Notes: a model not told the origin generated them from the letters alone. A stretch of DNA of 64,000 bases from Patescibacteria group bacterium (GCA_018825365.1 JAHJEV010000003.1:2284-66283), one strand, 5' to 3'. Shown: positions 7,665 to 22,676, counted from the first letter of the stretch. Translations and numbers: made by a program.

Positions 7665-7778
7665 AAAATAATTTTTGGGGGTTTACAACAATTTCTGGCG
7701 TACCTTATAAACACTACGTCTTATTGAACTTGATAGACATAGTTGTTACCATTTATACTAAGAAAGTTAATCTGCCCT

Positions 7779-9539
7779 ATGACAAAACTTGATAAGATAA
7801 AAACTGTCGCTGACGTTTTGTACGAAAAAAAACTAATAACCTCAGATCAGTTGTCGGCAATAAAATTTGAAAATGTAAACACTGGAAAAAGTATTGAAAG
7901 TCTCATCAAAGAAAGAGGCTATGTAAACGGTGAGAATTTTGCTGAAGCTTTTGGTGAAGTATACAAAATTCCCTACACTACTCTTGTTCCCGGTCAGCTG
8001 GAACCCCAACTTTTGGACATTATTCCGCTTGAAATAGCAAGAAAATACAAAGTAGTTCCTATCAGTGTTGATGAAAAGAAACTTGACCTTGCGATGGTTG
8101 ATCCACTCGACCTTCAAACGATAGATTTCATTGAAAGGAAAACCGGCTTAAAAGTAATTCCCCACATTGTCACAGAAAAAACAATTGACAAGGTATTGGA
8201 AGAGCAAAAAGGAAAAGAACTTGGTGAGGAAATTACAGCTGCAATGGAGGAGATCTCACAGACGACTTTAAAGATTGAAGAAAGTCACGGAGAGTTGACG
8301 GACGCAACAATTAGAGACGCACCTATTGCAAGAATAGTAGGAATGATTTTGGAAACAGCAGTAAAATCGGGAGCCTCTGATGTTCACATTGAACCTGGTG
8401 AGGAGTCCTGCAGATTAAGATACAGAGTCGACGGAATTTTGGCCGAGAAAAGAACTCTTCCAAAGGAAATGACCGAATCGGTGGTTGCGAGAATAAAAAT
8501 TCTTGCCGGAATGAAAATTGATGAGAAAAGAATTCCGCAGGACGGAAGATTCAAAGTTCAGGTTGGAAAAATAGAAACAGATTTGAGAGTCTCTACCCTT
8601 CCTACTATATATGGGGAAAAAGTTGTTATCAGACTTTTGAGGGAACAGGGGGCTGTTTTTACATACAAAGATCTTGGCATGAGGGGGCTTACCTTAAAAA
8701 GACTTGAAGAAATGGTTTTAAAGCCAAACGGAATGATTTTGGTTACCGGACCCACCTCTTCTGGTAAGACTGTTACACTGGCATCCACTTTAGATAGATT
8801 AAATACCGCAAGAGTAAATATAGTAACGGTTGAGGATCCGGTTGAAATTAGAGTTCCGGGTGTAAATCAGGTACAGATTAATGTTCAAGCAGGCCTTACA
8901 TTTGCAACCGGCCTAAGATCTTTCCTTAGGCAGGACCCCAACATTATAATGGTGGGAGAAATAAGAGACGACGAAACCGCTGAGCTTGCCGTACACGCAG
9001 CACTAACCGGGCATTTGGTTTTGTCTACTTTACACACAAACTCTGCTTCAGGCGCGCTTCCAAGACTTATGGATATGGGAGTTGAAGACTTTTTCCTGGT
9101 GTCAACGGTCATAGGCGTACTTGCCCAAAGACTTGTTAGAAAGGTTTGCAAGTATTGCGTTCAGGAATACGAACCTCCGAAAGAAATCGCTGATGAAATT
9201 GCCGCAGTTTTACAGGAATTATCAAAAAATACTGTTCTTATGACTAAAGATCCGGAAAATGCAAAACTTGTAAAGACACTTTTAGAAAAAAACAAACCTG
9301 TTTTATTCAGAGGAAAGGGATGTCCAAAATGCACCGCAGGGTACACGGGAAGAGTTGGTATTTTTGAGCTTTTACAGATGAGCGAAAAAATCGGAGAGGC
9401 GACACTTGCAAAATCTCCGGCGACAAAGATTGAACAGATTGCAAAACAAGAGGGGATGATTACACTTATGCAAGATGGTTATTTAAGAGCGTTGGAAGGT
9501 TCCACGACTCTTGAGGAAGTAATGAGAGTCACAAAGTGA
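7779..9539 (+). CDS. pilB: Type IV pilus assembly ATPase PilB (GspE family)
   Basis: N-terminal GSPII domain, Walker A GPTSSGKT, and a C-terminal tetracysteine (CKYC...CPKC). Start taken at the ATG at 7779; the track's upstream alternative start is unlikely. Confidence 0.9.
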   Translation: MTKLDKIKTVADVLYEKKLITSDQLSAIKFENVNTGKSIESLIKERGYVNGENFAEAFGEVYKIPYTTLVPGQLEPQLLDIIPLEIARKYKVVPISVDEKKLDLAMVDPLDLQTIDFIERKTGLKVIPHIVTEKTIDKVLEEQKGKELGEEITAAMEEISQTTLKIEESHGELTDATIRDAPIARIVGMILETAVKSGASDVHIEPGEESCRLRYRVDGILAEKRTLPKEMTESVVARIKILAGMKIDEKRIPQDGRFKVQVGKIETDLRVSTLPTIYGEKVVIRLLREQGAVFTYKDLGMRGLTLKRLEEMVLKPNGMILVTGPTSSGKTVTLASTLDRLNTARVNIVTVEDPVEIRVPGVNQVQINVQAGLTFATGLRSFLRQDPNIIMVGEIRDDETAELAVHAALTGHLVLSTLHTNSASGALPRLMDMGVEDFFLVSTVIGVLAQRLVRKVCKYCVQEYEPPKEIADEIAAVLQELSKNTVLMTKDPENAKLVKTLLEKNKPVLFRGKGCPKCTAGYTGRVGIFELLQMSEKIGEATLAKSPATKIEQIAKQEGMITLMQDGYLRALEGSTTLEEVMRVTK

Positions 9540-10600
9540 AACTAAATGCAACTCAGATTCTGGAAAAAGTTGTTGATATGAATGCTTCGGACCTTCATGT
9601 GTCTGTCGGTTCAAGGCCCCATGTCAGGATAAATACACAACTTCAGCCTCTTGGGGACTATCCTGTTTTAACAACCGATGATTTAGAATACATCCTTTCC
9701 CAAATTTTAGATGCTAAGCAAAGAGAACTCTTGGAAATAAACAAGGAACTGGATTTTTCAATTGCTCTTGGTCAAAAAGCCAGGTTTAGAATAAACGCCT
9801 ATTTTCAGAAAGGCTACCCAGCAATAGCTTTTAGACATATTCCCCTTGAAGTACCGACGTTTGAGCAACTTCATTTACCCGCCAACCTTGAAACGATATG
9901 TAATTTAAAACAGGGTCTTATCATTGTTGCAGGCCCCGCAGGGCATGGTAAGTCAACAACTATTGCGTCAATGATGGAAAGAATAAATACCACAAGAGCC
10001 GAGCACATAATTACCATCGAAGATCCTATTGAATACATTTTCTCAAGTAAAAAATCATTAATTGAGCAAAGAGAAATGTTTTTGGATACCCATTCATGGG
10101 AAGTTGCTCTAAAATCTATTTTAAGACAGGACCCGAATATAGTTTTTATAGGGGAAATGAGAGACGTGGATACAATGAGATCCGCTCTTCAAATAGCTGA
10201 AACCGGACATCTAGTTTTTACTACGCTTCATACAAACTCGGCCGCTCAAACAGTGGACAGAATAATTTCTTCGTTCCCGGCGGAAAAACAAGGTGAAATA
10301 AAAAACCAACTGGGATCTGTTATCGAAGTTGTTATTTCAGAAAGACTTCTGCCCTCGGCGTCACTGGGGGTAGTTCCTGCTTTTGAAATTATGGTTAATA
10401 CTGACGCAATCTCAAATCTTATAAGAGAAGGAAAACCGCATATGATCGATAACGTTATTAATACAGGCTCTCAGTTTGGGATGATTAGTCTTGAGAAAAG
10501 TATGGCAGAGTTGGTAAAAAGCGGAATTATTACATTTGAAGATGCGATAAAGTTTGCATCCAGGCCAAACGAGTTAAAAAGGTTTGTAGACCGAGAATAA
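9536..10600 (+). CDS. pilT: Twitching-motility retraction ATPase PilT
   Basis: ASDLHVSVG, Walker A GPAGHGKST, and the GEMRD and HLVFTTLHTNSAAQTVDRI motifs. A GTG start overlaps the pilB stop (GTGA). Confidence 0.9.
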   Translation: MKLNATQILEKVVDMNASDLHVSVGSRPHVRINTQLQPLGDYPVLTTDDLEYILSQILDAKQRELLEINKELDFSIALGQKARFRINAYFQKGYPAIAFRHIPLEVPTFEQLHLPANLETICNLKQGLIIVAGPAGHGKSTTIASMMERINTTRAEHIITIEDPIEYIFSSKKSLIEQREMFLDTHSWEVALKSILRQDPNIVFIGEMRDVDTMRSALQIAETGHLVFTTLHTNSAAQTVDRIISSFPAEKQGEIKNQLGSVIEVVISERLLPSASLGVVPAFEIMVNTDAISNLIREGKPHMIDNVINTGSQFGMISLEKSMAELVKSGIITFEDAIKFASRPNELKRFVDRE

Positions 10601-10603
10601 AAT

Positions 10604-11806
10604 ATGCCAATTTTTGATTACACTGCGAAAAATTCATTTGGTAAGTCTATAAGCGGAAGCGTTGATGCAAGATCCCAAGAAATTGCCGTTTCTCTTTTGA
10701 AAAACCAGGGGCTTACGGTTATCGGAATGAATGAAAAGAAAATGTCTTTCATTGATCAGTTCCTGAATTTTAGAGGAGTGCCGAAAGGAGAGACTGTAGC
10801 TTTTACAAGACAGCTTTCTACAATGATCTCAGCAGGTCTTCCAATATCAAGAGCATTGGAGGTTTTGGCCAACCAATCAACAAACAGAAGTTTTAGAAAA
10901 ATAGTTACTGAGGTACTTCGATCTGTTGAAGGCGGTGTATCGCTTTCGATGTCTTTGGCAATTTATCCAAGGGTTTTCAATGAAACATATGTTTCATTGG
11001 TCAAAGCTGGTGAGTCCTCTGGTAAACTGGATTTAATTTTGAAAAAACTTGCGGAAAACATGGAAGCGGAAAGAGATCTTGACTCAAAGTTCAAATCCGC
11101 AATGATCTACCCCATCATAGTTTTTATCGCTATGATTGGGGTTTTCATCATTCTTATGGTTTTTGTCATCCCCAAACTTTCAGAGATGTACACGAATATG
11201 AATATTGAGTTGCCCCTTATCACGAGAGCTATGATTTCGGTCTCCACCTTCATGGTGAGATATGTTTATATCGTTCTCATTTTACTCATAGGTGCGATTT
11301 TAGGGATAAGGTCATTTGCAATGTCAAAAAAAGGAAGAGCAATTATTTCCGAAATTACTATCAAAATTCCGGTGTTTGGAAAAATTACACTTCAAAAAGA
11401 TTTTTCGAGATTCAGTAGAACTCTGTCTTTACTTATAAACTCAGGCGTACCCATTGTTGAATCGCTAAACATAGTCTCAACGTTAATGTCCAGCCAAACT
11501 TTAAAAAATGCAGTTTTAGATGCGGCAACACAGGTTGAAAAAGGCCAGTCACTTTCAAACTATTTCAGAAGTACAACAAAATTCCCTCCCCTTTTAGGCC
11601 AGATGGCCGGAGTTGGCGAGGAAACAGGAAGAATGGACGAAGTTTTGGAAAGGGTCGCGATTTATTATGAAGGTGAGGTTGACAACATGGTTAAGGGTTT
11701 ATCTTCGGCCCTTGAGCCGATAATTCTTGTGATGCTTGGTGTTATGGTAGGGTTTTTGATCATATCGATCATAACTCCTATCTACAAGCTAACCAGTTCT
11801 ATTTAA
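10604..11806 (+). CDS. pilC: Type IV pilus inner-membrane platform protein PilC (GspF family)
   Basis: 400 aa with two GspF repeats and 3 transmembrane segments, located immediately after pilT. Confidence 0.85.
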   Translation: MPIFDYTAKNSFGKSISGSVDARSQEIAVSLLKNQGLTVIGMNEKKMSFIDQFLNFRGVPKGETVAFTRQLSTMISAGLPISRALEVLANQSTNRSFRKIVTEVLRSVEGGVSLSMSLAIYPRVFNETYVSLVKAGESSGKLDLILKKLAENMEAERDLDSKFKSAMIYPIIVFIAMIGVFIILMVFVIPKLSEMYTNMNIELPLITRAMISVSTFMVRYVYIVLILLIGAILGIRSFAMSKKGRAIISEITIKIPVFGKITLQKDFSRFSRTLSLLINSGVPIVESLNIVSTLMSSQTLKNAVLDAATQVEKGQSLSNYFRSTTKFPPLLGQMAGVGEETGRMDEVLERVAIYYEGEVDNMVKGLSSALEPIILVMLGVMVGFLIISIITPIYKLTSSI

Positions 11807-11846
11807 GAAGAATATAATTTATTAACTTAAAGGAGGTGAATAAAAT

Positions 11847-12350
11847 ATGTTATTTCAACCTAAAGAAAAAGGTTTTACGTTAGTTGAGCTTTTGGTAGTT
11901 ATTGCTATCGTTGCTATTCTTGCGGGCGCTGTTTTAATTGCAATTAACCCAGCTACAATGATGCAAAAAGCAAGAGACTCCAGAAGACTTGGAGATATGG
12001 ACACGCTTGTCAAAGCCATGAACTTGGCTATAACAGAGGGTGAGATCACCTTAGCAACTATGGCAGCCGCTACGACTTCAGCACAAGCTACTGCACAGGT
12101 AGTTGATGGTACAGGTTGGATAAGGTTTGCTATACCAGCGACAAAGACTGGCCTTTCGAAATACGTAGCAGCCCTTCCACTTGACCCGACAAACACAGGA
12201 TCGAACGTCTACTCATTCCAGTCAACTTTGACTGATTTTGAGATGGACGCAGTTTTGGAGCATGCTGATAATGCAATAAAAATGACAACGGATGGTGGAA
12301 ACAGCGCTACGAAATACGAAGTTGGAACAAGCCTTACAATCACGAACTAG
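11847..12350 (+). CDS. Type IV pilin (candidate major pilin)
   Basis: Prepilin leader followed by GFTLVELLVVIAIVAILAG. A strong RBS (AAAGGAGGTG) precedes it, and a terminator follows. Confidence 0.8.
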   Translation: MLFQPKEKGFTLVELLVVIAIVAILAGAVLIAINPATMMQKARDSRRLGDMDTLVKAMNLAITEGEITLATMAAATTSAQATAQVVDGTGWIRFAIPATKTGLSKYVAALPLDPTNTGSNVYSFQSTLTDFEMDAVLEHADNAIKMTTDGGNSATKYEVGTSLTITN

Positions 12351-12408
12351 TGATTGGTTAGTGGAGTTGGAATTGCGTACGTAGCCAGAGCTCTGTTTAT
12401 AGAGTCAA

Positions 12409-12444
12409 AGGGGACCCGTATTTGGCGGGTCTCCTTAAGTTTTT
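12409..12444 (+). terminator. Rho-independent terminator after the pilin gene (shared by convergent genes)
   Basis: Hairpin GGGGACCCG-tatttgg-CGGGTCTCC followed by a T-rich run (TTAAGTTTTTA). Confidence 0.5.
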
Positions 12445-12473
12445 ATGAAAAGCCTCAGGTTAATTAAAACACG

Positions 12474-12914
12474 TCACTTCTGGATAATAATTTCTTTCCC
12501 ATACAATTGTTGTTTCACATTATGTTTTATTTCTTCGGAAACGGATTTATTCTTGACAAGTTTCATAATTTCTTTTGGGTCATCGTCAGCTGCTATTCTA
12601 TTTAAATTAACTTTTCCACATTTTTCACAAATGTGCATAAGCATAAGTTCCCCTATCTTTGCTTTCTTCCACTTGCCATCACGGCTTTTTTTGAACGTAA
12701 CTCCGACAGGATGCATCTTCCCCCCACATTTTGAAAGTCTGTCTCCGGTTTTTGTTTCATCAACGTGTTTGCTCCAAAGACAAAATGGGCAATGATTTCT
12801 ATTTCTTGTACCGATATTTCCAATTGCCGAAACATGTTTGCCACAGTGCAAACATTTAAAGTTTTCTTTGATATTGCTTTTCACACTCCAATTATATCTT
12901 AGATTCCTGTACAA
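12474..12914 (-). CDS. RNHCP domain protein (paralog 1)
   Basis: RNRNHCPFCLWSKHVD plus CxxC pairs (CLHCGKH, CEKCGK) form an RNHCP/zinc-ribbon signature. Its start lies only about 8 bp from the divergent pilD start. Confidence 0.7.
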   Translation of the reverse strand: MYRNLRYNWSVKSNIKENFKCLHCGKHVSAIGNIGTRNRNHCPFCLWSKHVDETKTGDRLSKCGGKMHPVGVTFKKSRDGKWKKAKIGELMLMHICEKCGKVNLNRIAADDDPKEIMKLVKNKSVSEEIKHNVKQQLYGKEIIIQK

Positions 12915-12921
12915 TAATTTT

Positions 12922-13806
12922 ATGCAGACATTGTGTTATATTTTTCTTTTTTTAGGCGGCGCTCTTATCGGATCTTTTTTAAACTTGGTTTCTGATCGTC
13001 TTCCAAAGCGTAAGCTGATTATTTTTGGAAGATCCAAATGTGATTTTTGTAACAAACCCCTTGAGCCTAGAAATTTATTCCCTATATTTTCTTTTCTTTT
13101 CCAAAAAGGTAGGTGTTCCTTTTGCAAAAAGAAGCTTTCCCTTTACTACCCCCTTTCGGAGATCTTATCTGGTTTGTTATTTATAGTTGCCGGTTACGCA
13201 TCCAGATTTTTTCAAGTTCCATCATTTGCAACTCTTATTACCTTTATCTTTTATGCCGTTGTATTTAGTTTTTATCTGATTATTTCTCTGACGGATTTGA
13301 AGAAATGTATTATTCCTGACGAAGTTGTCTATCCAGCTATTGGTTTTACTGTTTTATATATTTTATTTTCCAGAGCTTATGATTTTTTGACTATGAAAAA
13401 AGCTCTGTCTAACGATCAACTTGGGGTTTATCTTATAAAAGTTGGATACCTTAATAGTCAGCTTATGTTCGCGCTGAAAAATCTTGGTTTAGTTTTATTA
13501 GGAGCGGTTATTATCTGTTTGTTTTTTATGTTTCTGGTTTGGATCACAAAAGGAAGGGGGATGGGATGGGGAGATGTAAAACTTGGATTTTTAATAGGAC
13601 TTGTTAACGGGTTTCCTTATGGATTTGAGGCGATATTTTTCGGGTTTGTGCTTGGAGCTTTGTATAGTTTGATTTTAATAATATCCAAAAGGAAAACCAT
13701 GAAAGACACGATCGCATTCGGTCCTTTCCTCATCATGGGAAGTGTGCTTACTCTTTTATATGGGGTCAGAATTTTTGATTGGTATACGAGTATAGGGATG
13801 AGGTAA
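12922..13806 (+). CDS. pilD: Prepilin peptidase PilD (A24 family)
   Basis: N-terminal CDFC...CSFC zinc motif, multiple transmembrane segments, and the catalytic DLKKCIIPD and GMGWGDVKL motifs. Start taken at MQTLCYIF. Confidence 0.85.
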   Translation: MQTLCYIFLFLGGALIGSFLNLVSDRLPKRKLIIFGRSKCDFCNKPLEPRNLFPIFSFLFQKGRCSFCKKKLSLYYPLSEILSGLLFIVAGYASRFFQVPSFATLITFIFYAVVFSFYLIISLTDLKKCIIPDEVVYPAIGFTVLYILFSRAYDFLTMKKALSNDQLGVYLIKVGYLNSQLMFALKNLGLVLLGAVIICLFFMFLVWITKGRGMGWGDVKLGFLIGLVNGFPYGFEAIFFGFVLGALYSLILIISKRKTMKDTIAFGPFLIMGSVLTLLYGVRIFDWYTSIGMR

Positions 13807-13855
13807 CTGGAGAGATTCTTAAAATTTTAGGCAAGGAGGAAGAAGAAAAAATGAT

Positions 13856-14380
13856 TTAGTTTTTGTCTTTTAGACACTCTAAGTACATCTTCTCACACCT
13901 TATTATCTGTTCTTCAATTGTATCCAGACCCATATTTTCTCTTAACTCTATCAGTTTATCTGAATCCTTTACGGGTAGTAACTCCGTAATCACCTTACCG
14001 TCTTTTTCTTCAGATTTGACTTGGGTTCCGTATATTTGGTAACCGTATTTTCTTAAGCACACTCTATCCTCAAGAAAGGCCACGTCTTTCTTTGATACAC
14101 CGTTTAAGTTTTCTTTCATTAGTTCTAGGCATCTTTCTCTAAACTCATTATCTTTAGTGTGTTGTGCCAGTAACCACGATGCGTGGGCTGCCCTCTCACC
14201 TACTTTGGAAAATGTCGGCCATCCGATTTTTGAAATTATCTTTTTAAGTTCCTTAGTGTTTTTTTCGTCTGCAGTTTCTACATCTTTCCATGAGAAGTTT
14301 GGATTTTTCCTAAGTTTCTGATCCCGCTTAGCCATTTGTAGAAGCTTCGTCTTATTTAAAAAGCGTTTGAACAAATTCAT
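13856..14380 (-). CDS. Hypothetical protein at the distal end of the rSAM cluster
   Basis: 174 aa (KIGWPTFSKVGERAAHASWLLAQH). No recognised motif. Confidence 0.4.
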   Translation of the reverse strand: MNLFKRFLNKTKLLQMAKRDQKLRKNPNFSWKDVETADEKNTKELKKIISKIGWPTFSKVGERAAHASWLLAQHTKDNEFRERCLELMKENLNGVSKKDVAFLEDRVCLRKYGYQIYGTQVKSEEKDGKVITELLPVKDSDKLIELRENMGLDTIEEQIIRCEKMYLECLKDKN

Positions 14381-14416
14381 ATATATATAAAGTAATACTT
14401 TCCACTCAAATAAAAT

Positions 14417-14448
14417 AGTGCCTACTCATTGTTAATGTAGCAGGCACT
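14417..14448 (-). terminator. Possible terminator downstream of the rSAM gene
   Basis: Imperfect hairpin AGTGCCT...AGGCACT, followed on the minus strand by a T-rich tract. Confidence 0.35.
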
Positions 14449-14456
14449 TGATGTGG

Positions 14457-15752
14457 CTAAGACGTTATGACATTTCTATTATAAGTAACTCTCCCGCTTT
14501 CATCCAATAACCACAGTCCCTTGTTCCACTCTCCTGTGTATGGATTGTATGTGCACCGGGGGTAGGGGGACTCCGCTAGACTAAGTTTTCCACCACAGCT
14601 TCCAAACGACAGAGCTCTGCAGTCGAAACAACAATATCTGTATTCGCAGTCTTTACATACCAAAACACTGTCCTTTGTAGATTTCCAAATGTCTTGAACC
14701 TGCTTACGCTCAACAAGGTTTGTGAGGTTGGTTTCTTTGTAATTTCCCAGAATTGTCCCACGAAGGAAGATACAAGGTAGGAAATCCCCAAATTCTGTCA
14801 CAGTCAAGCAGCCCTTAAGGCACGAATTAAAAGACGTGTGGTTACAAAGAGACTCTTTGTTAGTCTGGAAGTTTGGTTCCATCAGACAACCGTATTTAAG
14901 TATGTACTTCATGTCCGGCAAGAGTGTGGAGTTGTTACCCCGACCGGTAGGCCTCAAAGGGTCTATTTTACTAGATTGTATTCCAAGTTCCCTTTTAAAT
15001 TTTAGGGTTTCCTCTATGGTTTCCTGGTTAGCTCTCATTAACACGGTTTCAGCTCTTACTAGAACACCGAGGTTTCTTAACTGCTTTATTACGGCCACGG
15101 TTTTTCTGTGACTTCCGGGAGTTCTGGTAATGTAGTCGTGAATCTTCTCATCATGGGAGTAGATAGTTGTGGCGATTTTCAACCCCAGACTTTTTATTCG
15201 AACGATGTCTTGGCTTTTAACCAGTGTGAGATTACTAAAGATTTCGATACTGTTAAAACCTATTTCTATGGCATACTCCGCTAGATCCAGGACTGTTTCT
15301 TTGTTACTACCCCTGAATAAGAAAGGTTCCCCGCCTATAAACTGACCCCTCTTACACCCAAGATCTCTTGCCTCTTTTATTAATGAGACCCAACCCTCAA
15401 ATCTTATCGGAGTTTGGTTGCAGTAAACATCCTTATTTCCTGCTTCACCAGAATCCACGTAACACTGAATGCATCGTTCGTTACAGCGCGAAGTGCAGAT
15501 TTCAAACCACACAAAGTTCAGATTTGCCTGTCCTTCGTCTTTGGGAAGTTTGCTATAAGAATGCCTAGAACATTTTGTTGCCAAACCCAAGTTTAGAAGT
15601 TTTTCCCAATAGGCAGCATCACTTGATTTATTAGATAATATACCTACCGCTGCCTGGTTTATTGAGTATACGTTTCCGGAGTTTGTATCTAGTATTGCCC
15701 CTCTGTGAACTCCCTTTACTAAATAGACACCCTTACCAAGTTTGTATTTCAT
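14457..15752 (-). CDS. Radical SAM/SPASM-domain peptide-modifying enzyme with N-terminal PqqD/RRE-like domain
   Basis: CNERCIQC is a CxxxCxxC radical SAM motif. The C-terminus is Cys-rich SPASM (CNHTSFNSCLKGC...VCKDCEYRYCCFDCRA...C). The first ~80 aa (YLVKGVHRGAILDTNSGNVYSINQAAVGIL) match the PqqD-like RiPP recognition element pattern. Confidence 0.85.
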   Translation of the reverse strand: MKYKLGKGVYLVKGVHRGAILDTNSGNVYSINQAAVGILSNKSSDAAYWEKLLNLGLATKCSRHSYSKLPKDEGQANLNFVWFEICTSRCNERCIQCYVDSGEAGNKDVYCNQTPIRFEGWVSLIKEARDLGCKRGQFIGGEPFLFRGSNKETVLDLAEYAIEIGFNSIEIFSNLTLVKSQDIVRIKSLGLKIATTIYSHDEKIHDYITRTPGSHRKTVAVIKQLRNLGVLVRAETVLMRANQETIEETLKFKRELGIQSSKIDPLRPTGRGNNSTLLPDMKYILKYGCLMEPNFQTNKESLCNHTSFNSCLKGCLTVTEFGDFLPCIFLRGTILGNYKETNLTNLVERKQVQDIWKSTKDSVLVCKDCEYRYCCFDCRALSFGSCGGKLSLAESPYPRCTYNPYTGEWNKGLWLLDESGRVTYNRNVITS

Positions 15753-15799
15753 CGCATCTCTCCTCTTTTGTTAGATTATAACTTGCAATATATCACTTA

Positions 15800-16564
15800 T
15801 TAGTACTTTTCACTACTTGCTTTGGAGTACTCTGGGTACTTTTTCTTTATTCTTTGAACAAACTGGTAAATATTTTCCTCATCGTTTTTTAAATACGTTT
15901 TCCATTCTTTTAGAATTTTTCTTTCACACGTTTGCAAATGTGTGTGACCTACTTGCATCCCATCACACTTAAAGTAACTTCCTTTCCTGTTTAACCTAAT
16001 TCGCATTTCATTGTCAGCTATTAATTCAACAACCGCGTGTTCCAAATCTGTTTTTATAAAAAAATTGTGAAGATACTCATGAACAAGATAAACCAAGCTA
16101 TAATTTTTCCAATCCTCCTCATGGCCCCAGAATATACTTCCATGGTAGCTTGATCCCTCCCGCACTTTGTTACTAAGGACGTTCACAACAGAGTTTTTCT
16201 CTGGGAGTTCTGTCTTCAAAATATCCATCAACTCTTTATTTATAATTTCTTTGTTTTTATTCCACTGATTTTCGAGCCGTACTTTATAGTCACAAGCATT
16301 TTTATATATTGAGGAGAACTCTTTTGTGGCTAGTCCTTCAGAAAGAATTTGCGTTATGTCAGAGGTTGCTTCTTTTAATACCTTTTTGTAATCTGGTCCA
16401 GAAAGTAATTCATAGTAGTTACCTTGTATTAGTTGATAACCTTTTTTGTATTTTTTCCATAACTTGTTTTGAAGACTTACCCAACTTTTAACTCTATAGT
16501 TAGGGGTTTTTAATAAACAGGTTATGAAAAGTATTTCTTTTGAGATTTTGAAAGTTAAGTCCAT
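15800..16564 (-). CDS. HExxH-motif protein (candidate zinc metallopeptidase; paralog of 21081..21767)
   Basis: LVYLVHEYLHNFF contains HExxH. It lies between the candidate precursor and the rSAM gene. Confidence 0.5.
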   Translation of the reverse strand: MDLTFKISKEILFITCLLKTPNYRVKSWVSLQNKLWKKYKKGYQLIQGNYYELLSGPDYKKVLKEATSDITQILSEGLATKEFSSIYKNACDYKVRLENQWNKNKEIINKELMDILKTELPEKNSVVNVLSNKVREGSSYHGSIFWGHEEDWKNYSLVYLVHEYLHNFFIKTDLEHAVVELIADNEMRIRLNRKGSYFKCDGMQVGHTHLQTCERKILKEWKTYLKNDEENIYQFVQRIKKKYPEYSKASSEKY

Positions 16565-16630
16565 ATTTTATAAAGGTGGCGAAGTTTATGATCAAGCACG
16601 TTTCACAAACTTCGCCTATTTGGTACATCA

Positions 16631-16786
16631 TTACTTTGGATTACAAGTTCTTGGATAACAGGATGGTGCACATGGACCGTTGGGGGCGCAATTTGGATTA
16701 CACCTAGAGGGTCCTTTCCTGTTGTTTGTCACGAGCTTTATCTCTGGTTTCTCACGGTTTTTCAAATCAGTTGTTGCGGGTTTCAT
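16631..16786 (-). CDS. Small Cys/Pro/Asn-rich peptide, candidate RiPP precursor (51 aa, below the ORF-track cutoff)
   Basis: MKPATTDLKNREKPEIKLVTNNRKGPSRCNPNCAPNGPCAPSCYPRTCNPK. A strong SD (AAAAGGAGATCATA-ATG) precedes it. The sequence shows a charged leader plus a repetitive C-x-P-x core with 5 Cys. It lies on the same strand as the downstream rSAM/SPASM enzyme. Confidence 0.55.
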   Translation of the reverse strand: MKPATTDLKNREKPEIKLVTNNRKGPSRCNPNCAPNGPCAPSCYPRTCNPK

Positions 16787-16995
16787 TATGATCTCCTTTT
16801 CTTCTAGCACTTTTCTATCTTTATGTTGTTATTCTATCACTTCTTGTAAAGCTGTGGGTACTTGACACACCATTCCCTTGGGGAACTTCTAATAGATTCT
16901 GTTTTATATTCAGCTCGAGGGGATATTAATTAAAATTGTTATAGGATTTATGGTAGCCAGATTGTCCAGAAAAGATTGTCCTTATATTTTGGTAG

Positions 16996-18426
16996 TTACG
17001 ATAAACTTGTGATTTGTTGGATTGGGACCCGCAGTGTCTTTACGCTGTCGGATTCAATTTTTTCGCCAGGTTTTAATATTGTTGTTTTAGGAAGGGATAT
17101 CCAAAATGTGCTTCCCTTGCCTATTCCATCGGATGTTGCCCAAACTTTCCCCCCCATTCCCTCAACATAAAGCCTTACAATATAAAGTCCAAGTCCAGTG
17201 CCGCCTGTGTCTGAAGCTATAGTATAGGAATTATCTATTCTTCCGAATTTATGGAAAAGCTTTGGAATATCCGGGGGGTTAATTCCGGACCCGGAGTCTT
17301 TTATCTGAATCACTACTTTATCTTCTTCGTTTTCTACCGTCACTTTTATTCCCCCGTTATCGGTAAATTTAACAGCGTTATCTATCAAGTTTATGATCAC
17401 ATTTCTCATTTTCTCTTTATCGATATCCACAAAAACGTCAAGACACTCTTCATCGAAACTTAAGTTAATCCCTTTGCTTTTAGTCTTTATCTCAAAGCCG
17501 GTAAGAATTTCCTTTATGAGTTCGCAAAGATTTGTTTGAATAATCTTGAACTCTACCTTATCTTGTTCGAATCTGGATATATTAAGCATGTCGTTAATCA
17601 AATCTATCATTCTTTGAGTCCCCCTTTCGGCCTTTTGAAGGTATTCTTTCTGTTTGTTGTTTAGTTTCCCTGTTTTATGTTGATCCATCATCCAAAGATA
17701 ACTTTTAACGATTGTCATTGGGGTTCTGAGTTCGTGTGAGGCTACTGTTAAAAACTCATCCTTCATTTTATTTAGAACCATTAAATTCTCGTAGGCTTCA
17801 TTAAGGTCATCTTTCACTTCTTTTAGGTTTTTATAAAGCCGTGAATTTTCAAGAGCAATTCCTGCGTTCTCGGAAAATTTTCTTAACATTTCCTTTTCAA
17901 AATCAGAAATTTTATCCGCATTTTTTGACATGCTGACTATCAAAACTCCGATAGCTTTGTCTCTGACGGTCAGTGGTGTTGCGATATTCAACTTGGTGCC
18001 AAGGAGCGCCTGGATATCTTTTGAATCTTCAAGTGTAACGGAAGGACCTAAAAGATCAAAAAGATTTCCTGATACGTACTGCTTTTTATCTTTGATGGCC
18101 CTTATACAAAGGTTGTCTTCATACCCTAGGGCTATACTTTTACTTCGAAGCGAGTCTTTTAGTTTTCTCATGACATTTTCATCTTTTATGGTTTGGGATA
18201 TTGCCGTTTTTACAAGTTTTTGTCTTTGTTCATCAACAAGCCAAAGAATCGAAAATTCATATCCCAATGCCATTGGGATGATGTCCGCAATTTTTTGGGC
18301 CATCTCGTCAAAGTCGTTAGTTCCAAGGATTATTTCGATAAGCTTATATGTAGCGTCAAGTGCCCTATTCTTATCAACAAGAGCCAAAAGCTCATTCTCC
18401 TTAAGTTGAACAGTATTATTATTCAT
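16996..18426 (-). CDS. Cytoplasmic sensor histidine kinase with GAF domain
   Basis: GAF region followed by the HisKA H-box (TVASHELRTPMT) and HATPase_c N/G boxes (NLIDNAVKF, DSGSGI, GGTGLGL). No transmembrane segment. Confidence 0.85.
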   Translation of the reverse strand: MNNNTVQLKENELLALVDKNRALDATYKLIEIILGTNDFDEMAQKIADIIPMALGYEFSILWLVDEQRQKLVKTAISQTIKDENVMRKLKDSLRSKSIALGYEDNLCIRAIKDKKQYVSGNLFDLLGPSVTLEDSKDIQALLGTKLNIATPLTVRDKAIGVLIVSMSKNADKISDFEKEMLRKFSENAGIALENSRLYKNLKEVKDDLNEAYENLMVLNKMKDEFLTVASHELRTPMTIVKSYLWMMDQHKTGKLNNKQKEYLQKAERGTQRMIDLINDMLNISRFEQDKVEFKIIQTNLCELIKEILTGFEIKTKSKGINLSFDEECLDVFVDIDKEKMRNVIINLIDNAVKFTDNGGIKVTVENEEDKVVIQIKDSGSGINPPDIPKLFHKFGRIDNSYTIASDTGGTGLGLYIVRLYVEGMGGKVWATSDGIGKGSTFWISLPKTTILKPGEKIESDSVKTLRVPIQQITSLS

Positions 18427-18461
18427 GGCAGTAGCTTAATTATATATGTAAGTTTACAATT

Positions 18462-18758
18462 TTGGATATGGCAAGAAGATTTCAGAAAAAACTTGAGAAT
18501 TTCAAATGTGATAATTGTGGATACGAAGTTGTTGGATTCGGGTACACAAATCACTGTACCCAGTGTTTGTGGAGCAAGCATGTTGATATATTTCCCGGAG
18601 ATCGGAAGGAGGACTGCAAAGGTTTAATGAGGCCAATTAGGATTGAAAAAAAGAAAGATGGGTATGTGATAGTTCACAAATGTGAGAGGTGCGGGGAGGA
18701 AAGAAAAAACAAGGCATCCCCGCAGGATAATTTTGAGCAGATTATAAAAATAAGCTAA
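18462..18758 (+). CDS. RNHCP domain protein (paralog 2)
   Basis: YTNHCTQCLWSKHVD plus CDNCGY and CERCGE, the same motif set as 12474..12914. Confidence 0.7.
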   Translation: MDMARRFQKKLENFKCDNCGYEVVGFGYTNHCTQCLWSKHVDIFPGDRKEDCKGLMRPIRIEKKKDGYVIVHKCERCGEERKNKASPQDNFEQIIKIS

Positions 18759-18814
18759 CTCCCCTACCCGACTTTATTTGACTTGTTGTATTTCCTGACT
18801 GGTGTTATAAATTA

Positions 18815-19228
18815 ATGTATATGGATGAAAATAAAATTCCAAAAAATAATATTTTGATAATAGAAGATGAGCAGGATATTAGAGAAATTTATGTTGAGGT
18901 TTTGACCAATGCTAAATACACGGTAGATCAGGCTGCCGATGGGGAGACGGGGATGCAAAAGATAAAAGAAGGAAACTGGGACCTTTTACTACTTGATATA
19001 ATGCTTCCCGGAAGGGACGGACTTAAGATACTAAAGGAGATTAAAGAAACCCCCGGACTTAAAAAAGGTCCTGTTATTGCTCTGACTAATTTAAACAGCG
19101 AAAACATTATTCATGAGGTTTTTACTTCGGGAGCGGACGGGTATCTGATTAAAAGTGAAATTACACCGGATAAGGTAGTTGAAGAGATTGCGAAGGTTTT
19201 GAGTAAAGAGGAAGAAGAAAACAAGTAA
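18815..19228 (+). CDS. Stand-alone response regulator receiver (CheY-like)
   Basis: ILIIEDE, the phospho-acceptor DLLLLDIMLPG, the T (ALT) and the K (YLIKS). No output domain. Confidence 0.85.
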   Translation: MYMDENKIPKNNILIIEDEQDIREIYVEVLTNAKYTVDQAADGETGMQKIKEGNWDLLLLDIMLPGRDGLKILKEIKETPGLKKGPVIALTNLNSENIIHEVFTSGADGYLIKSEITPDKVVEEIAKVLSKEEEENK

Positions 19229-19280
19229 CGCCTAATTTCGTTTTGATTTCTGAATCCTTGATGTAGTTGTCGAATGGCGT

Positions 19281-19547
19281 CTATTTTTTACTTCCAGACT
19301 TCCACTCAAAATATTTATTAACCCAAGTCGGGTACTTCTCACCTGTTGAATCAAACACCTTGTATTCGAAATCCAGTATATCAATAGCATATGACATTTC
19401 GTCATAATTCGGTTCCTGCAAAAGTCTTGAAGGAAGGTTCCAAGCAGTATTTAAAATATGCATTGATAAGGTTTTATCGTATTTTCTATCATATTGATTT
19501 GTTCCTGCTATTAGTAGTAATAAAAGTTTGTTTTTATCTATTTTCAT
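19281..19547 (-). CDS. Small hypothetical protein inside the inserted segment
   Basis: 88-aa ORF starting MKIDKNK. The upstream part of the track ORF overlaps another frame and is probably not coding. Confidence 0.25.
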   Translation of the reverse strand: MKIDKNKLLLLLIAGTNQYDRKYDKTLSMHILNTAWNLPSRLLQEPNYDEMSYAIDILDFEYKVFDSTGEKYPTWVNKYFEWKSGSKK

Positions 19548-20189: not shown

Positions 20190-20753
20190 TTAGACTCTTT
20201 TAGCATTTTGTTTCTTTTCTCTATAGTCGTAAAAGATTTGTTTGAGAGTGGCAAAAGAAGTTAAACCAAAGTCATGCGGATCAAGACCTGTACCAAATAG
20301 TTCGAACAACTCCCACTCTCTGTTAGGGTCTAAGCATATTTTTTTAGAATCAGGATCAACAAATATTGTATTATCCTCCAATACTACTTCAGCAAAGGCA
20401 TGACCTTTAATTGGCTCTTTTGTACCGTTTGGATCCAGATCCAACCATCTTTTCGAGATGGTCTCTAAGTACCTAGTGGAGTAACCCTCAGCTCTCATTA
20501 AGGTACAAAAAACTATAGTGGAGTCTGTGCATCCTGTTACGAAGCCGCTTTTCAATATTTCCTCGGCTGTTCGGGTATGAAATAGTTTAATCCAGTCTTC
20601 GGGGCGTTTCTTGTTTAGGTTTTTGACCATATAGCCAAGTACATATGCAATATACTCAATAGGTTTAGTACCTTTCGGCTTTAACTTTTTGGCTATGTTG
20701 CAAATATATTCAGTTTTTATGGTCAGATGACCATCTTCTAAAAATGTAATCAT
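20190..20753 (-). CDS. Transglutaminase-like cysteine protease superfamily protein
   Basis: GCTDSTIVFCTLMRAEGYSTRY with downstream GHAFAEV and D give a Cys-His-Asp core. Start taken at MITFLEDG; the upstream track extension runs into the GC-rich island. Confidence 0.5.
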   Translation of the reverse strand: MITFLEDGHLTIKTEYICNIAKKLKPKGTKPIEYIAYVLGYMVKNLNKKRPEDWIKLFHTRTAEEILKSGFVTGCTDSTIVFCTLMRAEGYSTRYLETISKRWLDLDPNGTKEPIKGHAFAEVVLEDNTIFVDPDSKKICLDPNREWELFELFGTGLDPHDFGLTSFATLKQIFYDYREKKQNAKRV

Positions 20754-20799
20754 GGCGTAAGTATAAGCTGGGTTTTGAGGTATCACAACAAAACCCGGC

Positions 20800-21085
20800 T
20801 TCTTCGAATCTACGCTGAGGCATCGCGTTCTGCGAGGGCTGCCTGCAGCACTTTGATCTTTCCGTCCACGTGCTCGTACATACCGGATCAAACCCTGCAG
20901 AAGGGGGCAATTTCAGAGCACGTTCCATCGCCTTGGTAGCGTTCGTAGGTACAACCGTTGTTGCAGATCTTGGCCCATTTGCATGAGCGCATACTTGACA
21001 CTTTGTCGGCAGTTCGGTACGTAAGCGGGGCCAATCTTGATACTTTTCCTGTGCGAGAATCTCGGTGAGTGGGTGCGCGTTTAGC
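20800..21085. other. GC-rich island in an AT-rich context (function unknown; contains a candidate 34-aa Cys-rich ORF at 20878..20982, minus strand)
   Basis: About 280 bp that is visibly GC-richer than its flanks. Minus-frame ATG..TGA encodes MRSCKWAKICNNGCTYERYQGDGTCSEIAPFCRV (5 Cys) but has no good SD. The plus frame is also open, which is typical of GC-rich DNA. Confidence 0.2.
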
Positions 21086-21767
21086 TATTTGTTAATAACT
21101 CTACAGCGGATCTTAATATTTCATCGGGGCCCACCCATTTTTTGGACATATATAATTCTCGAAGTTTTTTCTCATCGGTGTATCCGGATTGTTCTGGATT
21201 CGTGAAAAAAGTAAGGCTTTCCTTAAGTAGTTGATAATTGTTATTTCCAAGATCTTTTTCTAATTGAGGATAATAATGAAGAAACATAAAATGATTTAAT
21301 TCATGTTTTGCTGTACTCAACTGAATCTGCACAGGAGATTTATGAAGGAAAAAATATCTTTTCTCGAAATTATATGGGCAGATAATATTAGTAGTGATAA
21401 AAGCGGTAACCTCGTCAAAAGGAAACTTTTTATTATAGAAAGTTTCAAGTTGATATATAACTTGATTTCCAACACTTTTCCACGTATCGTTAATTTTTTT
21501 AATATTCCCTCCCATTTCTGATTCTTTTTCCTTGTAATTAAGTCTTAGATACTCGAGTATCCGTCTGGATTTTTGCTCATTAGTGTCTCCGCTGTGAAAA
21601 ACATCCTGTATTTTTTGAGGAAGTCTATTTACTATGGATTCACTTTTGTTAACCTCGCCGTATGAGTATCCGGTGTCTCCGAAAAATCTAGTATAGTTCC
21701 ACAAATCTTTATCGATGGAATATTCAATGTTTAATTTCATAAGGATAGTATAAAAAAAGCTACCCAC
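21081..21767 (-). CDS. HExxH-motif protein, paralog of 15800..16564
   Basis: AKHELNHFMFLHYY contains HExxH. Its size is similar to the other paralog, and it shares an aromatic/W-rich region upstream of the motif. Confidence 0.45.
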   Translation of the reverse strand: MGSFFYTILMKLNIEYSIDKDLWNYTRFFGDTGYSYGEVNKSESIVNRLPQKIQDVFHSGDTNEQKSRRILEYLRLNYKEKESEMGGNIKKINDTWKSVGNQVIYQLETFYNKKFPFDEVTAFITTNIICPYNFEKRYFFLHKSPVQIQLSTAKHELNHFMFLHYYPQLEKDLGNNNYQLLKESLTFFTNPEQSGYTDEKKLRELYMSKKWVGPDEILRSAVELLTNS

Positions 21768-21802: not shown

Positions 21803-21916
21803 TCACGACTCATCCTCGCAGTCTTCACAATCTTCGTAGCATTCAACACAATCTACTCCTTCACAATCGATCGGCACACAATCGGGTACGGAGCATTCTG
21901 CGCTTTGTGAAGACAT
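21803..21916 (-). CDS. Small Cys-rich acidic peptide (37 aa) immediately upstream of the HExxH paralog
   Basis: MSSQSAECSVPDCVPIDCEGVDCVECYEDCEDCEDES from an internal ATG of the 90-aa track ORF. It has 8 Cys, and its arrangement mirrors the 16631..16786 / 15800..16564 pair. No strong SD. Confidence 0.3.
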   Translation of the reverse strand: MSSQSAECSVPDCVPIDCEGVDCVECYEDCEDCEDES

Positions 21917-22055
21917 CTTAGCTCGTAAAATTCGAGTGTCAAGTACCCCTTTTTTAGGACTGGTATTGTGAGTGTGTCTGAAGATACTTCTGTTTGAAGA
22001 CTGCAGGAGGCATCTTAAGTCTCGTATGTATTCTTTGGTTATTGTGATAGTTAAT

Positions 22056-22676
22056 CTATTGATGTATTGCCTCAACTAACTCTCCAATTGAATTAAACCT
22101 ATCAAACTCAAGCCCCAGGTCTGTTTTGAAGTTTGAGTAGAAGGATTCCTGGTATCCATTCTCCCAGGGAGATGCTTTCTTGCTCATAGATATTGTTATT
22201 CCAAGATACTTTGCAAAATCTGTGTATCCTTTGCAGTTATATTCCGATCCCTGATCCGTGTGTACCACCTTTGGAAGTTTGTACCCGGTACTTTCAAAGG
22301 CGGAAAGGAGGGCATCAAGCACGAGCTCTTTAGTATGTTTACTAGAGACCGACCATCCCTCAATCTCTCTTGTGAAAAGATCCATAAATGTTGCCAGATA
22401 CATATATCCCTCCTTGTATTTTATATACGTGAAATCCCCCACGTAGGTAATATCAGGAACAATGGGAAAGAGACCTTTTATATGATTCTGATATATTGCG
22501 GGAGGGTTTCTCTCATCTCTTCTTTTCCTTAAGTGTTGTTTTCTTTTGGTAGGCTTAATACCAAATCTTTTCATTACTCTCCTAACTCGTTTCTTACCAA
22601 TACCCAAAGCTAAAGCTACTCTTCTGTGTCCATAGGCAGGATTATCCTCCAGAACAGAAAGTATTTGTTCTCTCAA
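22056..22676 (-). CDS. IS3-family transposase OrfB (integrase core; frame open upstream toward orfA)
   Basis: DDE/rve motifs with IS3 OrfB architecture. It is probably expressed as an OrfAB fusion by a -1 frameshift. Confidence 0.8.
   Translation of the reverse strand: MREQILSVLEDNPAYGHRRVALALGIGKKRVRRVMKRFGIKPTKRKQHLRKRRDERNPPAIYQNHIKGLFPIVPDITYVGDFTYIKYKEGYMYLATFMDLFTREIEGWSVSSKHTKELVLDALLSAFESTGYKLPKVVHTDQGSEYNCKGYTDFAKYLGITISMSKKASPWENGYQESFYSNFKTDLGLEFDRFNSIGELVEAIHQ

Follow-up and report, generated by a model that had tools for sequence, protein, structure and literature searches.

A conserved peptide, radical SAM/SPASM enzyme and HExxH protein cassette in Patescibacteria, with C-x-P repeats as the candidate substrate

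What does a radical S-adenosylmethionine (SAM) enzyme with a SPASM domain do to a 51-residue, Cys-rich peptide encoded close to it, and is such a peptide a genuine gene product? Both questions are raised by a locus at positions 13,856-19,228 of a 64,000-nt stretch of DNA, here called the window, from a Patescibacteria group bacterium (GCA_018825365.1 JAHJEV010000003.1:2284-66283). Three genes on its minus strand are central to the answer: those of the small peptide (16631..16786), of a 254-residue protein with an HExxH motif (15800..16564) and of the 431-residue enzyme, a presumed peptide maturase (14457..15752). The original prediction, made from the sequence of the window, had proposed a candidate locus for a RiPP (a peptide that is ribosomally synthesised and then modified post-translationally), with a maturase of the sactipeptide or ranthipeptide type and control by an adjacent two-component pair. 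Every open reading frame (ORF) that it listed was recovered at the same place and on the same strand. We consider it highly probable that the three genes form a RiPP-type maturation cassette. Comparison at the sequence level showed peptide, enzyme and HExxH protein to be a conserved unit, and showed the enzyme gene and a gene for a peptide with C-x-P repeats (Cys, any residue, Pro) to be partners across bacterial and archaeal phyla.

The C-x-P peptides and their genomic partner

The window peptide reads MKPATTDLKNREKPEIKLVTNNRKGPSR-CNPN-CAPNGP-CAPS-CYPRT-CNPK, that is, a leader bearing the family motif KPEIKLVT and a core with five C-x-P units. A Shine-Dalgarno sequence (AAGGAG, 16793..16798, minus strand) could be read 6 nt ahead of its ATG. 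The exact peptide is absent from the public protein collection, in agreement with its earlier description as unannotated. Homologous peptides are encoded in L005, the nearest relative of the locus (enzyme 88% identical), and in L001, from WWE3; in both of them all Cys and all Pro at position +2 are retained and the middle residue x varies. Between the window and L005 we observed synonymous differences in three of the five Cys codons and three of the five Pro codons, together with changes of the middle residue. The leader carries an in-frame 6-nt indel between the two, and the ribosome-binding site is retained. On this conservation and codon pattern, the possibility of a chance ORF was rejected.

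The enzyme is widespread. Hundreds of homologues at 45-55% identity were found in Patescibacteria (WWE3, Woese-, Roizman-, Levy-, Ames-, Curtiss-, Dojka- and Jorgensenbacteria), and cultured Sporomusaceae (Sporomusa, Pelosinus, Anaerospora, Lucifera, Propionispora) carry it at 33-38% identity. A scan with one genome per species gave 266 enzyme relatives, from which 80 loci were taken for neighbourhood counts; these also cover Chloroflexota, Latescibacterota, Krumholzibacteriota and Fibrobacteraceae, and three archaeal lineages (Methanosarcina, Bathyarchaeia and Thermoproteota) have the enzyme as well. A small C-x-P ORF adjoins the enzyme gene in 74 of the 80 loci, with at least three CxP in 72 and two CxP in the other 2, and mostly lies immediately downstream on the same strand. 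As a background, at least three CxP occurred in only 9 of 21,046 short stop-to-stop segments elsewhere in those loci. The adjacency of peptide and enzyme noticed in the window is thus a property of homologous loci across phyla. The complete trio, also part of the original prediction, recurs in L001, in L005 and in nine further loci with the same type of HExxH protein. In L001 it is located between the genes for ribosomal protein S15/PNPase and infB/nusA. The surroundings of L005 are syntenic with the window over a block comprising pilus genes, RNHCP, prepilin peptidase, DUF6624, enzyme, HExxH protein and peptide.

We then consider what is conserved within the peptides. Pro at +2 follows 692 of 733 Cys (94%), with similar counts in Patescibacteria/Chloroflexota-type peptides (229 of 247 Cys) and in the others (463 of 486 Cys); besides Cys and the +2 Pro, no position in the units was found to be conserved in either group. 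The 692 units are distributed over 75 peptides, at 2-28 per chain, in substrates that reach about 180 residues. Units can abut directly (33 CxPCxP pairs), and in six peptides the Pro of the last unit is the chain terminus. Arg at +4 was seen in 22 units (3%). Upstream of the core, 34 of 39 leaders of the Patescibacteria (candidate phyla radiation, CPR) type have an element (E/K)P(T/E)I-x-LV(T/S), placed 6-16 residues ahead of the first unit. The other leaders have a P-E-[IM] element that is related to it, and those of Sporomusaceae read (R/K)PKW-x-x-PE(M/I), with an acidic stretch behind. The original prediction, which had rightly picked out a Cys-rich peptide whose core does not match SCIFF (we obtained no NCBIfam match for it at E<=1), had overlooked the invariant C-x-P unit, the motif in the leader, and how large and phylogenetically broad the family is. 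Gene adjacency, the +2 Pro, the leader element and conservation at codon level together indicate, as a reading of sequence, that the small ORF is a real gene selected for C-x-P and the genomic partner of the enzyme.

Several variations were observed among the precursors. Microgenomates-type peptides paired with a second family of HExxH proteins, described below (L013, L016, L019, L020, L026, L038 and others), have a proline-rich tail (PPPGPPKPN, KPPPKPPGPH) that window-type peptides do not have. Two to four different C-x-P precursors surround one enzyme gene in L027, L055 and L076, so a single maturase may serve multiple substrates. In L069 (Sporomusa silvacetica), the peptide ORF breaks off behind the leader (…PKWETPEMSEWDTIEYCCLSFLLI), and two Veillonellaceae/Massilibacillus loci (L080, L082) yielded no C-x-P ORF; in these three cases the system may have decayed, or the repeats may have collapsed in the assembly.

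The radical SAM/SPASM enzyme and the HExxH protein

The window enzyme passes the Pfam Radical_SAM model (PF04055) with 43.6 bits against a gathering cutoff of 29.5. In an alignment with 24 homologues, the cluster motif C90-x3-C94-x2-C97 and a GGEP SAM-binding motif are invariant, and so are seven Cys of the SPASM domain (residues 311-400): C311-x10-G322-x4-C327, C366-x2-C369-x5-C375-x2-C378 and C400. SPASM domains follow a pattern Cx9-15Gx4C ... Cx2Cx5Cx3C ... C and bind two auxiliary 4Fe-4S clusters; the C375-x2-C378 spacing departs from this pattern, with x2 instead of x3. The Pfam SPASM model (PF13186) detected about half of the homologues, but not the window enzyme even at E<=10. Its best NCBIfam match was TIGR04193, the grasp-with-spasm maturase, which covered the SPASM domain and C-terminal extension (residues 296-410, E 6e-23) with 81.7 bits against a cutoff of 175. 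Invariant motifs, the PF04055 score and this partial match agree with the CxxxCxxC cluster and the C-terminal SPASM domain that had been proposed.

Neither the window enzyme nor a Sporomusa homologue reached the cutoff of any NCBIfam model. Assignment to a non-peptide radical SAM family, which would have spoken against the original prediction, was not obtained, the NirJ2 and AhbD models having cutoffs of 500 bits and scores of about 78. Models of peptide maturases scored lower still (WgkB 57 against 650, StsB 56.6 against 625, AlbA 40.7 against 850, and PqqE), and the proposed placement among sactipeptide or ranthipeptide maturases received no support from them, the enzyme falling under every curated maturase cutoff. 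No model of the anaerobic sulfatase-maturing enzyme (anSME) was among the best 25 of 40 NCBIfam matches of the window enzyme or the best 25 of 68 of the Sporomusa homologue. With the predicted structure as a query, the best matches were the RiPP maturases CteB, SkfB and SuiB, together with anSME. The N-terminal domain (residues 1-61) is predicted to begin with four short strands, to continue with two helices and to close with a further strand (predicted local distance difference test score, pLDDT, 71-93). A RiPP recognition element (RRE) is a winged helix-turn-helix of three beta strands and three helices that binds the leader, and the predicted fold would be compatible with a reduced RRE.

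In the HExxH protein, the motif HEYLH (residues 162-166, with H162, E163 and H166) is invariant in the family. A second invariant residue, E186, is located 20 residues after H166 within (A/S)DNE(M/L)R, and this is the spacing of thermolysin's third zinc ligand. The structure model (pLDDT 91.6) contains a three-stranded sheet, followed by helix 155-165 with the HExxH motif and helix 173-192 with the Glu. In this confident model, the protein has a predicted fold of the thermolysin/M1-like, gluzincin-like kind. The leader peptidase of the original prediction is accordingly supported as to its peptidase-like nature at fold level; leader removal itself would be the simplest candidate role. No relatives were found in Pfam, NCBIfam or PDB sequences. 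An exhaustive profile search yielded 510 cluster representatives. Some distant relatives carry signal peptides. In P0244 and P0220 the protein is joined to domains of the M23 peptidase or beta-lactamase type, and P0219 has two stretches matching the profile. This distant branch (P0219, P0220, P0244) may act on the cell envelope, independently of C-x-P systems.

In 12 loci, the window-type HExxH protein is encoded beside enzyme and peptide. A second family, with HEFGH and about 280 residues, takes the same place in another 19 loci of Patescibacteria, and 30 of 39 Patescibacteria/Chloroflexota-type loci carry one of the two. Homology between the two was tried and rejected: they were not linked by iterated hidden Markov model searches, and hhalign aligned only 14 residues around HExxH with a probability of 1.5%. 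We therefore treat them as unrelated in sequence. Recruitment of two unrelated HExxH proteins to the same cassette argues for a functional need for such a partner, and offers a natural experiment on the evolution of leader peptidases. A third kind of protein, with HED(A/T)H and weak TPR matches, is encoded directly downstream of the peptide in L064 (5358-6422, Fibrobacteraceae) and L070 (4520-5650, Krumholzibacteriota); with two loci, its presence there may be coincidental.

Proposed chemistry and role of the product

A leader/core peptide, a radical SAM/SPASM maturase and a peptidase make up a kind of system that is already known. Maturases of sactipeptides and ranthipeptides and related enzymes (CteB/SCIFF, AlbA, SkfB, PapB, NxxcB, QhpD) share with the window enzyme an N-terminal domain in addition to the radical SAM core and the SPASM domain, and a SPASM pattern of 7 Cys with room for a substrate Cys on an auxiliary cluster. 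They also share a Cys-rich leader/core precursor encoded beside the enzyme. Sactipeptides have a thioether from Cys sulfur to an alpha-carbon, and ranthipeptides one to a beta- or gamma-carbon; known ranthipeptides use Cx3D or NxxC motifs. The C-x-P precursors, in contrast, have no conserved acceptor residue, an invariant +2 Pro and units as short as three residues, and the window peptide does not match the SCIFF model. Triceptide (three-residue cyclophane) systems in which radical SAM and alpha-ketoglutarate (aKG)-HExxH domains are fused (ChlB/ChlH; FxsB-type) are alike in their repeated three-residue units and in the partnership of radical SAM/SPASM and HExxH proteins. They differ in that residue 1 of the unit is aromatic rather than Cys, and the HExxH protein here is separate, without a TIGR04267 match, and in its predicted fold closer to true gluzincin peptidases than to ChlH. 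The resemblance to the grasp-with-spasm maturase is confined to the C-terminal third of the enzyme, and no ATP-grasp partner was found in the neighbouring ORFs of the window or in conserved neighbour clusters. Similarly to the pyrroloquinoline quinone (PQQ; PqqA/E/D/F) and mycofactocin (MftA/B/C/E) systems, the cassette is a conserved, apparently vertically inherited set of precursor, radical SAM/SPASM enzyme and presumed dedicated peptidase and not a sporadic antibiotic cluster. Unlike them, however, it has no separate RRE protein, the PqqE and MftC models fall far below their cutoffs, and the multi-unit core with its variable middle residue argues against a single defined cofactor.

A model of maturation can be proposed in three steps. 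The enzyme would recognise the leader element KPEIKLVT, probably via its small N-terminal beta-sheet/helix domain. With the 5′-deoxyadenosyl radical and the two auxiliary Fe-S clusters, it would then modify all C-x-P units of the core one after another, and the HExxH protein, as a gluzincin-like metalloprotein, would remove the leader. Since only Cys and the +2 Pro are conserved, units abut and some peptides end at Pro, the chemistry would be confined to the triad; its partner atom would thus lie inside the triad, in x or Pro, or there would be no partner. Thioether formation is the characterised reaction known in leader-dependent radical SAM/SPASM systems with a conserved core Cys. With 7 Cys, a SPASM domain can have a free site on an auxiliary cluster where a substrate thiolate binds, as in CteB, and triceptides provide known three-residue rings, in the carbon-carbon case. 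For these reasons, a thioether that joins the sulfur of Cys to a carbon within its own triad (of the Pro ring, or the alpha-carbon of x) is the product that we prefer, tentatively and with somewhat less than even confidence. By analogy, our guess is that such a ring would be the sulfur counterpart of the three-residue rings of triceptides.

Some results weigh against a RiPP cassette of this kind. The PqqD/RRE-like N-terminal domain of the original prediction received only marginal support: weak matches to Pfam PqqD (PF05402) in 3 of 18 family members, the best with E 0.039, and nothing relevant in a profile search of PDB sequences. The predicted fold of the HExxH protein is also that of aKG-dependent HExxH oxygenases. 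No HExxH partner was found in the Sporomusaceae and archaeal systems, so leader removal would not be universal or would be done elsewhere. No transporter or immunity gene was found close to the cassette in the window. Finally, some substrates are larger proteins with extra domains, for which 'protein modification' fits better than 'small natural product'.

Two rival explanations concern the reactions. An anSME-like enzyme would abstract a C-beta hydrogen and convert each C-x-P Cys to formylglycine or another partner-free product, for example D-Cys, with no cross-link. The sulfatase motif C/S-x-P/A-x-R begins with C-x-P, its first half, and anSME too is a radical SAM/SPASM protein acting on Cys in such a context; the unit needs no partner residue, and the predicted structure resembles anSME. 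The scarcity of Arg at +4 argues against such oxidation, as does the lack of an anSME model among the best 25 of 40 NCBIfam matches of the window enzyme. Further, 8 Cys ligate both auxiliary clusters in published anSME structures, where only 7 SPASM-region Cys are conserved here, and anSME acts without the extra N-terminal domain on a single site in a folded sulfatase, whereas the substrates here are repeats behind a leader. We therefore regard anSME-like oxidation as unlikely. A different reassignment would make the HExxH protein an aKG-dependent tailoring oxygenase, hydroxylating for example the conserved Pro, and not a peptidase. Most Patescibacteria are thought to be anaerobic fermenters, in which an O2-dependent enzyme is less likely; moreover, Pro is equally invariant in lineages without an HExxH protein. 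Enzymes of the aKG-HExxH kind do have a zincin-like fold and accompany, or are fused to, radical SAM/SPASM maturases (PMC12636437), and one such enzyme acts on a RiPP as a Pro hydroxylase (PMC13060819). The window protein, however, did not match the curated aKG-HExxH model (TIGR04267/IPR026337) at E<=0.01, its invariant Glu has the spacing of the thermolysin zinc ligand, and its distant relatives are fused to hydrolase domains of M23 or beta-lactamase type. An oxygenase in this place thus appears improbable.

The remaining alternatives concern the use and the control of the product. Instead of a diffusible antimicrobial, it could be a structural, envelope-associated or metal/redox-active peptide or module, with the enzyme acting as a protein cross-linker like QhpD on QhpC; we hold this as possible but rather doubtful. 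The family looks vertically inherited, with a fixed synteny beside tig-clpP-clpX in 26 Sporomusaceae loci and a presence in many Patescibacteria lineages, and substrates have up to 28 units and lengths up to about 180 residues. The absence of immunity and export genes near the cassette of the window points in the same direction, as do a peptidoglycan-binding domain in the substrate of L039 and a conserved tail in archaeal substrates, both described below. By analogy, a QhpC-like structural, envelope or redox component fits several of these features at least as well as an antibiotic does. The window peptide, on the other hand, has 51 residues, no signal peptide and a classic leader/core layout, and an ABC transporter is encoded beside the Woesebacteria locus L003. 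As to control, the original prediction had linked production of the peptide to a cytoplasmic GAF-HisKA-HATPase_c histidine kinase (16996..18426, minus strand) and a receiver-only response regulator of 137 residues (18815..19228, plus strand). The kinase gene does lie 210 nt upstream of the peptide gene on the same strand, and histidine kinases are found within 5 kb of the enzyme gene in six other CPR loci, directly upstream in L035, although such proximity does not in itself speak for control. In L001, however, the identical trio has no kinase nearby; the 661 nt upstream of the L005 peptide show no similarity to a kinase, the conserved block ending at the peptide gene; and the regulator has no DNA-binding output domain and no conserved association with the cassette. 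Regulation by this pair is accordingly quite unlikely, and both proteins are probably unrelated neighbours.

Combining the preferred chemistry with a non-antibiotic role, we put forward as a speculative possibility that C-x-P is the substrate of an undescribed radical SAM reaction, giving a Cys-to-Pro thioether ring or serial Cys oxidation at 2-28 sites per chain. Rather than antibiotics, the products would then be a structural or envelope/redox component that is conserved and passed on vertically, and that Patescibacteria, Chloroflexota, Sporomusaceae and several archaeal lineages have in common.

Two kinds of larger substrate deserve description. In a Deltaproteobacteria metagenome-assembled genome (JAFGNJ010000005, L039:6248-6793, plus strand), a C-x-P protein of 172 residues carries 14 units, a twin-arginine translocation (Tat)-type SRRGFIK signal, a leader-like element PPEIKA and, at its C-terminus, a PG_binding_1 domain (Pfam E 1e-13). 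This arrangement of domains suggests that it is exported and attached to peptidoglycan after modification in the cytoplasm. Archaeal substrates of about 110-150 residues from Methanosarcina, Bathyarchaeia and Thermoproteota (L071, L077, L079) have a conserved C-terminal amphipathic tail (...LTAEVEELKKKVGR), which the bacterial C-x-P substrates do not have and which may be an oligomerisation helix.

Radical SAM/SPASM enzymes are a main source of new peptide chemistry, each new substrate motif having so far led to a new cross-link or oxidation. Here, a very simple and strictly conserved motif goes together with a single enzyme family, in 74 or more species-level genomes of very distant phyla. 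No curated NCBIfam or Pfam model exists for the enzyme subfamily, for the peptide or for either HExxH partner, and RefSeq labels the Sporomusa and Pelosinus enzymes 'radical SAM protein' and the peptides 'hypothetical protein'. No paper on the C-x-P family, its leader motif, the enzyme clade or the two HExxH partners was found in the literature searched, which did not include subscription-only papers. Patescibacteria have tiny genomes with few biosynthetic genes, so a cassette kept in many of their lineages likely matters for their lifestyle. Since the hosts include cultured, tractable or growable organisms (Sporomusa ovata, Pelosinus fermentans, Anaerospora, Lucifera), chemistry and role are directly testable.

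Genes around the cassette

Pfam agrees with the identification of the kinase (GAF, HisKA and HATPase_c), of the receiver-only regulator (Response_reg) and of the 98-residue RNHCP protein encoded between them (18462..18758, plus strand). Downstream of the radical SAM gene, 13856-14380 (minus strand) encodes a DUF6624 protein (Pfam E 5.9e-16) that the original prediction did not mention; it is conserved in the close relative L005 (78% identity) and was not seen in the other loci. DUF6624, RNHCP and type IV pilus genes were rejected as members of the cassette, their synteny being found only with L005. A promoter and terminator scan of 13700-19300 gave fewer promoter-like sites than shuffled controls, the gap between kinase and peptide genes being uninformative, and an Rfam scan of the window gave one tRNA only, distant from the locus.

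Three further observations were made in the window. There are two RNHCP-domain paralogues, the one mentioned above and another at 12474-12914 (minus strand) that adjoins a prepilin peptidase gene both here and in L005; this suggests a link of the latter paralogue to the type IV pilus cluster (about 7743-13806). A protein with a transglutaminase core, cysteine-protease-like, is encoded at 20190-20891 (minus strand), about 1 kb past the response regulator, with a Pfam match barely above the cutoff (E 6e-5). Beyond it, a 228-residue ORF with an HELNH motif (21081-21767, minus strand) had no family matches, and BLASTP found no similarity to the HExxH protein of the cassette, so that a relationship between the two was rejected. 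Directly upstream of the HELNH ORF, a small ORF (21803-22075, minus strand) has a C-terminus of Cys and acidic residues (CSVPDCVPIDCEGVDCVECYEDCEDCEDES) and overlaps an IS3-type integrase ORF (22056-22676, minus strand; rve, E 1.4e-26) at the 3′ end of the latter.

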